The position numbers and the translations under genes were made by a program. Positions 32,547 to 41,455 of a stretch of DNA of 41,455 nucleotides are shown here, one piece after another. The DNA comes from a virus. Taxonomy: Duplodnaviria; Heunggongvirae; Uroviricota; Caudoviricetes. The notes under the pieces are model-generated. The model had not been told where the DNA came from, searched no databases, and saw only the letters and a program-made list of their open reading frames with translations. Every line of letters begins with the position of its first letter. Within the stretch, counting starts at the first letter, position 1. The DNA is taken from IMG/VR virus record IMGVR_UViG_2585427970_000004; one strand, given 5' to 3'.

Positions 32547-32575
32547 TTGACCATCAATACGCAAGCGTATAAATT
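32547..32575 (+). promoter_or_regulatory. PRM-like promoter for cI; transcript predicted leaderless
   Basis: -35 TTGACC (32547..32552), 17-bp spacer, -10 TAAATT (32570..32575), ending about 7 nt before the cI ATG at 32583, which has no SD. Confidence 0.45.
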
Positions 32576-32582
32576 AAAACTT

Positions 32583-33275
32583 ATGAAAAAAGAAACTCTT
32601 GCTGATCGCTTAAACCTAGCGATGGAACAATCTGGAATGTCTCAAGGCGCTCTTGCAAAGGCGTCTGGCGTAGCTCAACCCACAATCTGGAGACTGACAA
32701 GCGGCAACGCGCGTGGCTCAACAAAAATTGTTGAAATAGCTAATGCATTGGGTGTTCGAACAGAGTGGCTCTCATCAGGCATAGGCCCGATGAGAAATGA
32801 CGGTCAACAATCAGGAAAGCCTGCTGTCAACCATTCCAAATACTTCAAGATTGACGTTCTTGATATAGAAGTGAGTGCCGGGCCGGGAGTCATCAACCGT
32901 GAGTTTGTAGAAGTTCTACGCTCGGTTGAGTACTCGTTTGACGATGCTCGTCACATGTTCGATGGTAGGAAGGCAGAAAATATCCGCATCATTAACGTGC
33001 GTGGTGACAGCATGTCAGGAACGATCGAACCAGGTGATCTGCTGTTCGTTGATATCACGGTTAAATCTTTCGACGGTGATGGTATCTATGCGTTTCTGTA
33101 CGACGACACAGCCCATGTAAAGCGCCTGCAAATGATGAAGGATAAGCTGCTGGTTATCTCTGATAACAAGAGCTACTCACCGTGGGACCCGATCGAGAAA
33201 GACGAGATGAACCGGGTGTTTATCTTCGGGAAAGTTATTGGGAGCATGCCGCAGACGTACAGGAAGCATGGGTAA
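32583..33275 (+). CDS. cI: CI-like repressor (HTH_XRE plus S24 LexA-like peptidase domain)
   Basis: Start refined to ATG 32583 (MKKETLADRLNLAMEQSGMSQGALAKASGVAQPTIWRL…); C-terminal GDSMSGTIEPGDLLFVD…HVKRL autocleavage-type motifs (Ser…Lys); track start is TTG. Confidence 0.85.
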   Translation: MKKETLADRLNLAMEQSGMSQGALAKASGVAQPTIWRLTSGNARGSTKIVEIANALGVRTEWLSSGIGPMRNDGQQSGKPAVNHSKYFKIDVLDIEVSAGPGVINREFVEVLRSVEYSFDDARHMFDGRKAENIRIINVRGDSMSGTIEPGDLLFVDITVKSFDGDGIYAFLYDDTAHVKRLQMMKDKLLVISDNKSYSPWDPIEKDEMNRVFIFGKVIGSMPQTYRKHG

Positions 33276-33743: not shown

Positions 33744-33920
33744 ATGGAGTTCTTAATTACTATTTTATCCATAATAGCTGTTGTGATACCTGCTGTATTG
33801 GCATGGTTTTCAAGAAAAAACCTCAAAAATGCACAGGAAACTTTAATTCACATAGAAAGGATCAGAAAATCAAACAGCGATGACTTTGAAAGAAAGAAAG
33901 AACAACTTAAATATCACTAA
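33744..33920 (+). CDS. Small single-TM protein (58 aa), below the ORF-track threshold
   Basis: AGGAG RBS 6 nt upstream of ATG 33744; MEFLITILSIIAVVIPAVLAWFSRKNLKNAQETLIHIERIRKSNSDDFERKKEQLKYH. Confidence 0.4.
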   Translation: MEFLITILSIIAVVIPAVLAWFSRKNLKNAQETLIHIERIRKSNSDDFERKKEQLKYH

Positions 33921-34830
33921 TGGAATTGGTATGCAGTTAAAAAATATCATTTATATTGATTATGAGAAGGTCTACTCTTTAAGCTCTCAATTATTTGAGG
34001 GCGTAATTCAATCCGCGATGGAGCATAAAGAGTCTACTCTTTCAAATATAGATGCAGTCGAAATTAAGACAAAAAGTAGTTCAAGTAAAACGAGTGACAC
34101 AAAAAAATTATCAACAGTGTTAAACCCTCATGATTACCATTATCTGAAATTTGAAAACGAACTTAGCAATAGAGGAATTCTATCTAACATAACTTCCCCG
34201 ATCGACTCGAACAAAATTAAGGCTAATTGCTTTGTTAAAATCACCTGCCCTATTCAATTTAATGACTATAGTAAATTAAAAAATACCGCGAAGGATTTTT
34301 GTAAAATTCACTATGCTATTAATTTCGTTCATCGAAATGGTGAATTAGAAAACCTAGAATCGATGCTGAAATCGATAAAACCCAAATCCAATGAATTTAA
34401 TATTATCAAGGCAAGACAAGCACAAATCAAAAGTGAGCTTGATAATTTAACTTCTCCAAATAAGAAAAAGTTTCTTGAGCATCTGTCTTCTGTTTTAGAT
34501 TACGCATATGGTGACGAAATAGAAATATCACAAAAAATGCAAGATATTAAATTCACCTCATTCTTAATCAGAGATTTTCTTAAAATCAGCCCAGAAATGT
34601 TTGTAAAGTTATATTCTCGTCGAACGACCTCTGCATTCACTGTCGTAGGGATGATAACGCGTACATCAACGTCTGAAGGCGATCAGGAATCAGAGGCTCG
34701 TGAACTAAGCGGCATTCGCAGTGCGGTCTGGAATATGAATGACAGCCTTTTTGATCTGGAGTCAACATTTTGTGCCCCTGACTCTGATGAATATTTCATT
34801 GAGCCTATTGCTGTTTACAATGAGCTATAA
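33880..34830 (+). CDS. Hypothetical soluble protein (~300-316 aa), third gene of the rex-slot cassette
   Basis: ORF from ATG 33880 overlaps the 58-aa ORF by 41 nt; alternative start ATG 33931 lies 10 nt after that ORF's stop; no motif I can assign; AT-rich; followed by a terminator. Confidence 0.55.
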   Translation: MTLKERKNNLNITNGIGMQLKNIIYIDYEKVYSLSSQLFEGVIQSAMEHKESTLSNIDAVEIKTKSSSSKTSDTKKLSTVLNPHDYHYLKFENELSNRGILSNITSPIDSNKIKANCFVKITCPIQFNDYSKLKNTAKDFCKIHYAINFVHRNGELENLESMLKSIKPKSNEFNIIKARQAQIKSELDNLTSPNKKKFLEHLSSVLDYAYGDEIEISQKMQDIKFTSFLIRDFLKISPEMFVKLYSRRTTSAFTVVGMITRTSTSEGDQESEARELSGIRSAVWNMNDSLFDLESTFCAPDSDEYFIEPIAVYNEL

Positions 34831-37710: not shown

Positions 37711-37992
37711 ATGCATTTTTCTGGCAGCGGGCTTCATATTCTGTGTGCTTATGCTTGCCGGCATGGGGCTTGTTCAGTGACACCTCAGCAAGAAAACGCC
37801 CTTCGCAGCATTGCCCGTCAGGCTAATTCTGAAATCAAAAAAGCCAGACAGCAGTTTCCGGATAAAAACGTCGATGACATTTGCCGTAGCGTACTAAAGA
37901 AGCACCGCGAAACGGTAACGCTGATGGGATTCACACCGACTCATTTAAGCCTGGCGATCGGCATGTTGAACGGCGTCTTTAAGGAACGATGA
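37711..37992 (+). CDS. Hypothetical small protein
   Basis: 93-aa ORF; start uncertain. Confidence 0.3.
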   Translation: MHFSGSGLHILCAYACRHGACSVTPQQENALRSIARQANSEIKKARQQFPDKNVDDICRSVLKKHRETVTLMGFTPTHLSLAIGMLNGVFKER

Positions 37993-38090
37993 ACATGAAA
38001 AGCAAAATCATCAGGGAGCTACAGGCTCCTTTTTTATTATTCGCATTTACCCTCAAGCGTATTAACCAACAATTCAGGGATTAATGAAAG

Positions 38091-38309
38091 ATGGCAGACA
38101 TCATTGATTCAGCATCAGAAATCGAAGAATTACAGCGCAATACAGCAATAAAAATGCGTCGTCTGAACTACCAGACTGTATCCGCAACTCATTGTTGTGA
38201 GTGTGGCGATCCGATAGATGAGCGAAGACGCCTGGCTGTTCAGGGTTGTCGGACTTGTGCAAGTTGCCAGGAGGAGATCGAACTTAAGAACAAACAATGG
38301 GGACTGTGA
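38091..38309 (+). CDS. TraR/DksA-family C4 zinc-finger protein
   Basis: 72 aa; CxxC…CxxC (CCECGDPIDERRRLAVQGCRTCASCQ) typical of phage TraR-like proteins. Confidence 0.7.
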   Translation: MADIIDSASEIEELQRNTAIKMRRLNYQTVSATHCCECGDPIDERRRLAVQGCRTCASCQEEIELKNKQWGL

Positions 38310-38635
38310 TGGCCTCAAAGCAGCAAATTTCAACATCGTCCAACTGGGGTGTAAAAATGTTCAGAATCATTTTTCCTAACACCTGGTACGTCGACCACCA
38401 CGGCACTCCCTGCAAAATCCTGCGTTCTACCCACAACAAAGTTCACTACATCCGAAAAGGCAGAACATGTATCGCCAGCATGTTCCGCTTTAATCATGAC
38501 TTTGAACCTGTGAATAAAGCTGATGCAGATCGGATAGCAGAAGAGATCGAAACGGCAGAACACATTAAGAAGTTACGTGACATGCGTTCAAAAAGCAGAG
38601 GTAACCATGGAATCATACAGCCTCACACTCGATGA
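38309..38635 (+). CDS. Hypothetical protein
   Basis: ATG 38309 overlaps the TraR-like stop (TGATG); track start is ATG 38297 in the same frame. Confidence 0.35.
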   Translation: MASKQQISTSSNWGVKMFRIIFPNTWYVDHHGTPCKILRSTHNKVHYIRKGRTCIASMFRFNHDFEPVNKADADRIAEEIETAEHIKKLRDMRSKSRGNHGIIQPHTR

Positions 38636-38957
38636 GGCCTGTCAGTTTCTTAAGATATCCAGACCAACCGCCACCAACTGGATACGAACAGGCCGCCTAC
38701 AGGCAACACGTAAAGATCCAACCAAGCCAAAATCTCCTTACCTCACAACACGGCAAGCCTGCATTGCGGCGCTTCAGTCTCCGCTGCATACTGTCCAGGT
38801 GAGCGCGGGTGATGGCATAACAGAGGAAAGAAAATGTCACTCTTCCGCAGAAGTGAAATATGGTACGCCAGTTTCACATTGCCGAACGGTAAAAGATTTA
38901 AACAGTCTCTTGGAACAAAGGACAAAAGGCAGGCGACAGAGCTCCATGACAAGCTAA
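38607..38957 (+). CDS. Excisionase-like HTH protein
   Basis: ATG 38607 with GAGGT RBS; [34 protein letters not shown]; immediately upstream of and overlapping int. Confidence 0.5.
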
Positions 38958-39997
38958 AGGCTGAAGCATGGCGGGTCAGCAAACTTGGTGAAATACCTGA
39001 TATAACGTTCGAGGAAGCGTGTGTCAGGTGGCTTGAAGAGAAAGCACATAAAAAATCACTGGACGATGACAAAAGCCGGATCGGATTCTGGCTTCAACAT
39101 TTCGCAGGAATGCAACTAAGAGACATTACTGAATCAAAAATTTATTCAGCAATGCAGAAAATGACGAACCGGCGTCATGAGGAAAACTGGAGACTCAGGG
39201 CAGAAGCATGCAGAAAAAAAGGGAAACCTGTTCCAGAATACACGCCAAAACCAGCGTCCGTTGCAACGAAGGCTACGCATCTTTCATTTATAAAGGCCCT
39301 ACTAAGAGCCGCAGAGCGTGAATGGAAAATGCTGGATAAGGCACCAATTATTAAAGTGCCTCAACCAAAGAATAAACGGATCCGCTGGCTGGAGCCCCAT
39401 GAAGCACAAAGGCTGATTGATGAATGTCCGGAGCCATTAAAGTCTGTTGTTGAATTTGCACTGGCAACAGGCTTAAGACGCTCGAACATCATCAACCTTG
39501 AATGGCAACAAATAGACATGCAGCGCCGGGTGGCATGGATAAACCCGGAAGAGAGTAAATCAAACCGCGCAATTGGCGTTGCGCTGAATGATACTGCATG
39601 TCGCGTTTTGAAAAAACAAATCGGGAATCATCACCGTTGGGTATTTGTGTACAAGGAAAGCTGTACCAAACCAGACGGAACGAAAGCGCCAACAGTAAGG
39701 AAGATGCGGTATGACGCAAACACAGCCTGGAAAGCGGCGCTGAGACGGGCTGGTATTGATGATTTCAGATTTCACGACTTGAGACACACCTGGGCAAGTT
39801 GGCTGGTTCAAGCCGGAGTCCCGTTGTCAGTGTTACAGGAAATGGGAGGCTGGGAGTCTATCGAAATGGTTCGTCGATATGCTCACCTTGCACCTAATCA
39901 CCTTACCGAACACGCACGGCAAATAGACTCGATCCTGAACCCATCGGTCCCAAATTCGTCCCAGTCAAAAAATAAGGAAGGTACTAATGATGTGTAA
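38834..39997 (+). CDS. int: Tyrosine integrase (tRNA-Thr site-specific, IntF-like)
   Basis: 387 aa; C-terminal catalytic motifs (…[42 protein letters not shown]…); ends 15 nt before the tRNA 3' end. Confidence 0.9.
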
Positions 39998-40011
39998 CTT
40001 ATTGATTTAAA

Positions 40012-40087
40012 TGGTGCCGATAATAGGAGTCGAACCTACGACCTTCGCATTACGAATGCGCTGCTCTACCAACTGAGCTATATCGGC
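40012..40087 (-). tRNA. thrW: tRNA-Thr (anticodon CGU), thrW-like; prophage integration target
   Basis: rc = GCCGATATAGCTCAGTTGGTAGAGCAGCGCATTCGTAATGCGAAGGTCGTAGGTTCGACTCCTATTATCGGCACCA; cloverleaf with anticodon loop TTCGTAA, TPsiC-loop TTCGACT, 3' CCA. Confidence 0.9.
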
Positions 40088-40201
40088 CCTGAAAGGACAT
40101 GTTCACGAACGTGAATCACGGTGGACAAGGTTAAAACTAACCGGGCGATGCGTCAATGGCCTTGTGAATCAAATGGCTACTTTTGCATCACCCGGTTTTA
40201 T

Positions 40202-41455
40202 TTACGCACGAATGGTGTAATCACCAATGCCGATCCACTTGTAAGTGGTCAGTGCTTCCAGCCCCATTGGGCCACGCGCGTGGAGTTTTTGTGTGCTTAC
40301 CGCCACTTCCGCACCCAGACCAAACTGGCCGCCGTCGGTAAAACGCGTAGAGGCGTTAACGTAAACAGCGGACGAATCCACTTCGTTAACAAAACGCTGG
40401 GCGTTGCGCATATCGCGGGTCAGGATCGCATCGGAGTGTTGTGTGCCGTGTTCACGAATATGGGCGATGGCATCGTCAAGATCGCTGACGATTTTGACGT
40501 TCAAATCTAATGACAGAAACTCATCGTCATACTCTTCGGCTTTAACAGCAACCACCTTCGCAGGGCCTGCCTGCAACTGCGCCAGTGCAGCTGCATCTGC
40601 GTGTAATGTCACGCCGCTTTCCGCCATTTGTTTGCTTAATGCGGGCAGGAAGCTATCGGCGATGTTTTTATTCACCAGCAACGTTTCAACCGTATTACAT
40701 GTGCTCGGACGCTGAGTTTTCGCGTTGACGATCACTTTTAATGCTTCAGCGATCTCTACACTTTCATCAACGTAAATATGGCATACGCCTATACCACCTG
40801 TGATCACCGGGATTGTCGACTGTTCACGGCACAGTTTATGCAAACCAGCGCCACCACGCGGGATCAGCATGTCGATGTATTTATCCATACGCAGCATTTC
40901 ACTGACCAGCGCACGGTCAGGATTATCAATCGCCTGCACGGCACCCGCCGGTAAGCCGCAGGATTTCAGGGCGTCCTGAATCACCGCCACCGTTGCAGCG
41001 TTAGTGCGACACGTTTCTTTGCCACCGCGCAGGATCACCGCATTACCGGTTTTCAGGCACAGCGAAGCGACATCAACCGTCACGTTCGGGCGCGCTTCAT
41101 AAATCACGCCAATAACCCCCAGCGGTACGCGACGACGCTCAAGACGCAGGCCGCTGTCCAGTACGCCGCCATCGATTACCTGCCCCACCGGATCGGCGAG
41201 GTTGCACACCTGACGTACATCGTCGGCAATGCCTTTCAGCCGTGCGGGCGTCAGTGCCAGACGGTCAAGCATCGCTTCGCTAAGGCCATTGGCTCGCGCG
41301 TCAGCAACATCCTGGGCGTTAGCGTTGAGGATGATTTCGCTTTGTGCTTCCAGTTCATCGGCGATTTTTTCCAGCACGCGATTTTTTTCGCGGCTGGAGA
41401 GTTGCGCTAATTTATACGAGGCTTGCTTCGCGGCAATGCCCATTTGTTCCAGCAT
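40202..41455 (-). CDS. proA: Gamma-glutamyl phosphate reductase ProA (host gene)
   Basis: 417 aa; [66 protein letters not shown]…; start coincides with the window end. Confidence 0.95.

Follow-up and report, generated by a model that had tools for sequence, protein, structure and literature searches.

Does the excisionase-like ORF that runs 124 nt into the neighbouring integrase gene encode a genuine protein over its whole length, and what keeps its reading frame open inside another gene? I analysed this locus in a 41,455-nt stretch of DNA (the window, hereafter) from a Caudoviricetes virus record, IMGVR_UViG_2585427970_000004. The xis ORF (38607..38957, plus strand) comprises 116 codons and a TAA stop codon at 38955-38957, and no earlier in-frame stop from 38607 was found by ORF reading. 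A Shine-Dalgarno-like AGAGG (38597..38601, plus strand) lies 6 nt 5′ of its ATG, as judged by sequence inspection. The int gene (38834..39997, plus strand) encodes 387 aa and has its own start codon, ATG 38834, preceded by the Shine-Dalgarno sequence GAGGA (38823..38827, plus strand), which lies within xis codons 73-74 (Glu-Glu). The dual-coding overlap (38834..38957, plus strand) is 124 nt long and consists of Int codons 1-41 and of Xis codons 76 (third base) to 116 plus the stop codon. The int frame is the xis frame +2, so that each wobble base of int is at the same time the middle base of a xis codon. An earlier note made from the sequence had described an ORF open from ATG 38607 to 38957, an int gene starting at 38834 with its own ribosome-binding site, and an overlap of 124 nt; all of these coordinates were confirmed. 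On the other side, a DUF4222 gene (38357..38635, plus strand, the longest ORF starting at 38297; Pfam DUF4222, E 3e-19) overlaps the xis start by 29 nt. Thus, xis is overlapped at both ends. The identical 29-nt overlap is annotated in SfI and E. coli TUM9812.

Is the ORF an excisionase gene? The protein matches PHROG 2907 'excisionase' with an E-value of 4e-52, residues 1-116 being aligned to profile positions 2-117 of 117, and it is 90.5% identical in amino acid sequence to P22 Xis over residues 1-116 (tblastn). These two results bear out the excisionase assignment made in the earlier note. The amino acid identity to the Xis proteins of SfII, SfIV, SfV, and phi458 is 95-98%, and even phage relatives with an identity of only 35-47% still align over the full length, with the tail included. 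Met1 is invariant among 48 homologues. A Pfam HTH_17 match was found at residues 6-36 (E 9e-9), while the score for TIGR01764 'excise' is 27.8 bits, slightly below the cut-off of 28.8. A sequence search of the PDB gave only chance-level matches (erbB-2, E 0.04; Pukovnik Xis, E 1.3), and lambda Xis was not matched in this search at E <= 10. Membership in the lambda Xis family was rejected, since no lambda-type excisionase family appeared among the Pfam, PHROG, and NCBIfam matches. According to the account in PMC7498355, which cites Mattis et al. 2008, P22 Xis has been purified and binds and bends att DNA. Deletion mutants of P22 xis show no excision (PMC8575938).

What kind of integrase is encoded downstream, and where does the element reside? 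Int matches Pfam Phage_integrase at residues 184-355 (E 3.5e-48) as well as PHROG 10426 and the PHROG 1 integrase, and it is 89% identical in amino acid sequence to P22 Int. Integrases of the P4/IntF type carry a P4-type N-terminal arm-binding domain (PF13356/DUF4102) and are roughly 400-470 aa in length. The earlier note had referred to this type, but the reference does not hold: Int lacks the P4-type N-terminal domain, with no PF13356 match at E <= 0.1, is 387 aa long, and has the Int proteins of P22, SfV, and SfI as its closest relatives. The Pfam scan of Int at E <= 0.1 returned Phage_integrase, a weak DUF6538 match, and nothing else. At the nucleotide level, the xis-int-att region is 98.5% identical to SfI, 97.5-98.7% identical to SfV, SfII, SfIV, and phi458, and 81% identical to P22.

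A tRNA-Thr(CGT) gene, thrW (40012..40087, minus strand), was found by ARAGORN and begins 15 nt past the int stop codon. Its 3′ part (40012..40057, minus strand) is an exact match to the 46-bp att core of SfI (PMC3636060), and the 23-bp core of P22 is contained in it. The proA gene (40202-41455, minus strand) lies beyond thrW, and proA and proB are annotated at the corresponding place in E. coli TUM9812. The remaining genes in the window include phage tail genes and genes for a CI-like repressor, RecT, a YqaJ-type exonuclease, a DksA-like protein, and DUF4222. The att core in thrW and this phage gene content indicate that a lambdoid prophage has integrated into thrW and that the window covers one of its ends. 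A second copy of the att core was not found, as no repeat of at least 16 nt from 39980-40110 occurs elsewhere in the window. The other prophage end, where the P arm would lie, is outside the window, and it and any gtr genes are outside the window or lost. By every feature testable here, the locus is an ordinary xis/int pair of a P22/SfV-type prophage at thrW. I consider it very probable that this is a P22/SfV-family lambdoid prophage module in thrW by proA, in which xis encodes a full-length 116-aa P22-type excisionase. As a textbook P22-type xis-int module, it carries little weight for discovery. Of 5426 complete E. coli genomes, 1043 contain 80% or more of the xis-int-thrW block used as the query.

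Some other genes of the window may be mentioned here. The CI-like repressor (HTH_3 plus Peptidase_S24) is encoded at 32547-33275, and a 316-aa DUF6414 protein is encoded just downstream at 33880-34830, a position typical for accessory (moron) or defence genes. An ORF with a GIY-YIG (LEM-3-like) domain is present at the window start (1-774), and an ORF for an rve-type (IS3-like) transposase is present at 1357-2247 on the minus strand, near the tail-fibre end of the prophage.

Is the long overlap common among relatives? Conservation of the overlapping frame had been set beforehand as a check, and the frame proved to be kept. A genome scan with one genome per species returned 50 loci, 45 of which have a recognisable int. 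In 43 of these 45, the xis frame reaches into int, by 124 nt in 26 loci and by 145 nt in 17, and 14 of 15 phage loci showed one of these two lengths as well. P22 (NC_002371; xis of 351 nt), SfI, and HK446 (43% Xis identity) have the 124-nt form, and APSE-1, Serratia BZS1, and epsilon34 have the 145-nt form. The two lengths are explained by the Int sequence: Int Leu41-Lys42 (CTA-AAG) puts a TAA in the xis frame, while Int Arg41-Lys42 removes the CTA-A stop, so that the frame continues for 21 nt. The exceptions are frameshifted or truncated copies; in the two exceptional genome loci (L059 and L062), xis is disrupted, and the int of L062 is additionally cut to 202 aa. The overlap is real and family-wide, and reference records already annotate it for P22, SfI, SfV, HK446, APSE-1, and others. 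Thus, the finding is already known. Full-text literature searches found no paper with an explicit discussion of the 124-nt overlap.

The start of int is also conserved. A GAGG/GGAG motif 6-11 nt 5′ of the int ATG was found in all 37 dereplicated relatives, and the ATG is likewise kept in 37/37. Nucleotide diversity in the 60 nt 5′ of the ATG is 0.45-0.53 at all three codon positions. The conserved motif and ATG favour ATG 38834 as the int start, against a TTG 45 nt downstream.

It had also been proposed that the true Xis product might be shorter, ending before or near the int start. Protein clusters of 64 aa that share the first 36-43 residues, the Xis of SEN22, which stops after 45 aa, and the lack of a xis annotation in many phage records might seem to speak for such a product. 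However, the short forms are frameshifts, each breaking elsewhere, and their C-termini correspond to the alternative frame of the window at 38632-38802; wherever a relative has a stop ahead of or close to the int start, its allele carries a frameshift or a deletion (SEN22, L059, L062, and the 64-aa clusters). The absent annotations reflect the gene callers, as in phage L, whose xis was added by hand (PMC8022706). In the window, no in-frame stop occurs between 38607 and 38955, and the family profile and the intact homologues are 115-116 or 122-123 aa throughout. The shorter product is therefore barely credible.

Frameshifted xis alleles encoding 64-67 aa occur in E. coli genomes (protein clusters P0095, P0097, P0098, P0100, P0102, P0104, and P0106); the 64-aa clusters are P0095, P0097, P0100, P0104, and P0106, and P0095 is found on 23 contigs. 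In SEN22, the frameshifted xis (L012 1501-1638) encodes 45 aa. Prophages with a frameshifted xis have probably lost the ability to excise. In S. flexneri SFBU1023 and E. coli ECMA0423 (L018/L019 and L027/L028), the module is present twice, the copies lying some 13 kb from each other (about 309 kb and 322 kb); one copy has a full xis and an int cut to 242 aa, while the other has a full int and a match to only residues 36-116 of Xis. These double copies look like rearranged prophage remnants at thrW. Near-identical enterobacterial xis-int sequences were also found in assemblies of a Bacillota MAG, Chryseobacterium sp., Micromonospora sp., and a Segatella copri MAG (L016, L023, L039, and L059), probably due to contamination or mis-binning.

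The locus has some practical value for annotation, since gene callers may drop xis or shorten int so as to make the overlap smaller. Because of the long overlap, xis is often skipped by gene callers; it needed manual addition in the phage L paper (PMC8022706). It is unannotated in the records of Edno5, HK639, Stx 75/02, SEN22, and ev243. In E. coli TUM9812, PGAP places the int start (L066 1820) at the TTG equivalent to 38879, 45 nt past the conserved ATG. In the SfV record and in several NCBI proteins, xis is given an upstream start that lengthens the product to 144-147 aa. The PGAP TTG start, the absent xis, and the extended xis are annotation artefacts of the long overlap.

Is the xis frame within int maintained by selection? 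The alternative is that the tail is translated but functionless, a passive read-through extension whose apparent conservation is a by-product of the conserved Int N-terminus. Between the window and P22, the overlap has 10 differences, of which 8 are silent in int but alter Xis. The int-synonymous sites of the overlap differ at 8/41, about equal to the 17/75 of the upstream xis third positions, as a functionless tail would predict. In such a close pair, these values indicate that the constraint on the Xis tail is weak in the short term and clearly weaker than that on Int. As a test of synonymous suppression on its own, this pair was rejected as confounded, since its divergence is lower throughout the xis region than in the remaining int. 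It was replaced by deep comparisons of 37 int genes that remained after dereplication to less than 93% nt identity; in these, the fraction of differing codons at identical amino acids was divided by the value expected at saturation. The ratio is 0.47 for int codons 2-10, 0.63 for codons 11-20, and 0.46 for codons 21-30; it is 0.83 for codons 31-41, 0.89 for codons 42-48, and 0.94-0.96 for codons 49-80. The suppression in the overlap is significant in a Mann-Whitney test on columns (p = 2e-9, or p = 1e-6 without codons 2-10), these p-values being approximate because the lineages share ancestry. A set of 12 int sequences gave the same picture. That the suppression is confined to the overlap and recovers directly after it speaks against a functionless tail. 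The last ten or so Xis residues are under little constraint (ratio 0.83), and two tail lengths coexist.

Individual codons and stop codons were informative as well. Int Leu26 is CTT in 37/37 lineages (background share 20%), which preserves Xis Leu102; the alternative leucine codons would change this residue to Trp, Ser, or a stop. Int Asp30 is GAC in 36/36 (background 41%), which preserves Xis Thr106, while GAT would give Ile. These codons are neutral for Int and fixed as Xis needs them, in contrast to what is expected of a functionless tail. Some other conserved residues do have the trivial explanation: Xis Cys77 is forced by the int ATG plus a Ser codon, and Xis Gly86-Thr87 is forced by Int Trp10 plus Tyr/His11. 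Across int codons 2-41, stops in the xis frame occur in 0/37 lineages, while in four int blocks of equal length elsewhere they occur in 76-97% of the sequences; the third frame of the overlap has stops in 37/37 sequences. The identity of the xis frame is 0.48 for codons 2-41 and exceeds that of a control block (0.35 for codons 49-88) at an equal Int identity of 0.68. In a simulation with the Int protein fixed and random synonymous codons, the xis frame remained open with a probability of 0.15-0.54 per lineage, which by itself would leave room for the functionless tail, but these chances multiplied over about 10 deep lineages amount to about 1e-5. Even with the low pLDDT of the tail (see below) counted in its favour, a tail without function seems improbable. 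Three tests, namely synonymous variation, fixed codons, and control blocks, point to an overlapping xis frame that is translated and under selection. This agrees with the suggestion in the earlier note that the C-terminus of Xis is translated from int-overlapping sequence, which fits both the conservation and the codon evidence. With 124-145 nt of one strand read in two frames, both of them selected, the codon analysis gives a clean small example of dual coding.

Could the constraint on synonymous sites in the first part of int instead stem from a cis-acting RNA or DNA element, such as the initiation region, an mRNA structure, or a recombination hot spot, rather than Xis coding? Synonymous constraint is common at the 5′ ends of genes, the SD-ATG region of int is highly conserved, and the mosaic junctions with ev243 and Stx 75/02 (see below) fall at 38852-38870. 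Against this, the suppression remains (p = 1e-6) without codons 2-10 and is seen as far as about codon 30, the avoidance of stops is frame-specific (0% in the xis frame versus 100% in the third frame), and the fixed codons end in C or T, which is not a simple AT-rich 5′ bias. A cis-acting element as the cause is thus highly unlikely, and selection on the xis frame remains the preferred reading.

What does the selected part of the protein look like? AlphaFold2 was run on Xis with 48 homologues. The N-terminal winged-helix DNA-binding domain (about residues 5-57; 38619..38777, plus strand) is predicted with a pLDDT of 77-90 and has the order strand, helix, helix, strand, strand, helix. In a Foldseek search, this domain matched BldC, RacA, Pukovnik Xis (4j2n; TM 0.74, rmsd 1.6), and P2 Cox (4lhf); these are small MerR-like winged-helix DNA binders, and two of them (4j2n and 4lhf) are recombination directionality factors. 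The linker (about residues 58-75; 38778..38833, plus strand) is poorly conserved, as judged by pLDDT and nucleotide diversity, and has the int ribosome-binding site inside; its residues 62-73 have a pLDDT below 50 and are predicted to be disordered. The whole tail has a pLDDT of 44-63. It has the motif C-x-S-S-x-E-x3-G-T, followed by a helix at residues 88-106 (38868..38924, plus strand, corresponding to int codons 12-31) that is predicted with low confidence (pLDDT about 56-63); the end beyond is disordered. L98, L102, and T106 are invariant, and the predicted helix coincides with the strongest synonymous suppression in int (0.46-0.63, codons 11-30).

Are xis and int exchanged as separate modules? 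The window is identical to ev243 (L015) over 38348-38852, 505 nt without a mismatch, and the identity then falls to about 70%; the first mismatch is at 38853, and mismatches are dense from 38866. The int of ev243 is only 72% identical in amino acid sequence, with an argU-type core and an overlap of 145 nt. The mosaic junction thus lies inside the dual-coding overlap, and ev243 combines the Xis N-domain and linker of the window with another tail and another int. At the level of sequence comparison, this natural experiment supports a modularity of xis and int. In Stx 75/02, the stretch shared with the window is 38781-38851 and has the same boundary on the right. Crossovers between xis modules and int modules seem to take place at the conserved SD-ATG-MSLFRR segment. 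Outside the core, motifs such as GCGCTCACACGTCCCA recur in the attP P arms of SfI, P22, ev243, and BZS1 (L002 2499-2790, L001 2208-2560, L015 2892-3200, and L007 2889-3170), although the tRNA-derived cores of these phages are of three types (thrW, argU-like, and one other). The shared motifs are consistent with common arm-type sites and/or Xis sites.

How might the module work? By analogy with lambda and P22, xis and int would be co-transcribed from the early-left operon after induction. The winged-helix domain (about residues 5-57) would bind and bend direct repeats in the P arm of att, and the flexible linker would carry the ribosome-binding site of int. The conserved tail would then supply protein contacts, most likely with Int, that steer the reaction towards excision. 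As a physical part of int, the tail passes on together with its own integrase every time, unlike the DNA-binding domain, which can be exchanged. The C-terminus of lambda Xis gives cooperativity with Int, and I infer by analogy that protein contacts, most likely with Int, are the function of the tail here. As for a promoter serving int only, no CII/C1-type site (TTGC-N6-TTGC) was found near 38300-39000, the two matches elsewhere being at chance level, and a scan for sigma-70 promoters and terminators over 37900-40150 gave nothing above the shuffled expectation.

A more specific proposal is that residues 77-106 of the tail contact the arm-binding N-terminal domain of Int. This is a tentative possibility that I would not favour on balance; the ev243 junction, with an identical DNA-binding domain but a different tail and a different int, fits it. 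No experimental test of the tail of a P22-type Xis was found in the searchable literature. If the proposal is true, one and the same DNA, read in two frames, would encode both the surface with which Xis makes contact and the first 31 codons of its partner domain in Int, and the partner specificity would be locked together through mosaic exchange. It would then be a clear case of an interaction module born by overprinting.

How does the locus compare with known systems? P22 (NC_002371; xis P22gp24 and int P22gp23) is alike in its 116-aa Xis (90.5% identity), its 387-aa Int (89%), its 124-nt overlap in the same relative frame, and its att core in thrW directly 3′ of int. In contrast, the nucleotide identity to P22 is 81%, with 88-92% in xis and the overlap and 65-83% in the remaining int, and the upstream gene is eaC in P22 but DUF4222 here. 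Closer are the Shigella serotype-converting phages SfI, SfV, SfII, and SfIV and the E. coli phage phi458, which share 97.5-98.7% nucleotide identity across xis-int-att, and SfI also has the upstream DUF4222 and DksA-like genes and the 124-nt overlap. Integration in this group is at thrW by proA (PMC3636060), as here. Unlike the window, the SfV record annotates a longer xis of 444 nt from an upstream ATG, and the gtrABC prophage end of the serotype-converting phages is absent from the window.

In lambda, xis likewise lies directly upstream of int in the same orientation, and its 3′ end overlaps the 5′ end of int. Lambda Xis is a small basic winged-helix protein, like the Xis described here, and its C-terminal tail mediates cooperativity with Int, as the present tail would by analogy. 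However, it has 72 aa and no detectable sequence similarity to the present Xis in the Pfam, PHROG, and NCBIfam matches, and its gene overlaps int by 23 nt rather than 124. The earlier note had called the overlap longer than typical; this is correct relative to lambda but not within its own family, since the length is that of the P22 annotation. Finally, the 145-nt variant, found in epsilon34, ev243, Stx 75/02, APSE-1, and Serratia BZS1, shares the Xis architecture, the frame relation to int, and the tail motif, while its Xis is 122-123 aa in length and several of its members reside at other tRNA cores, such as an argU-like one.
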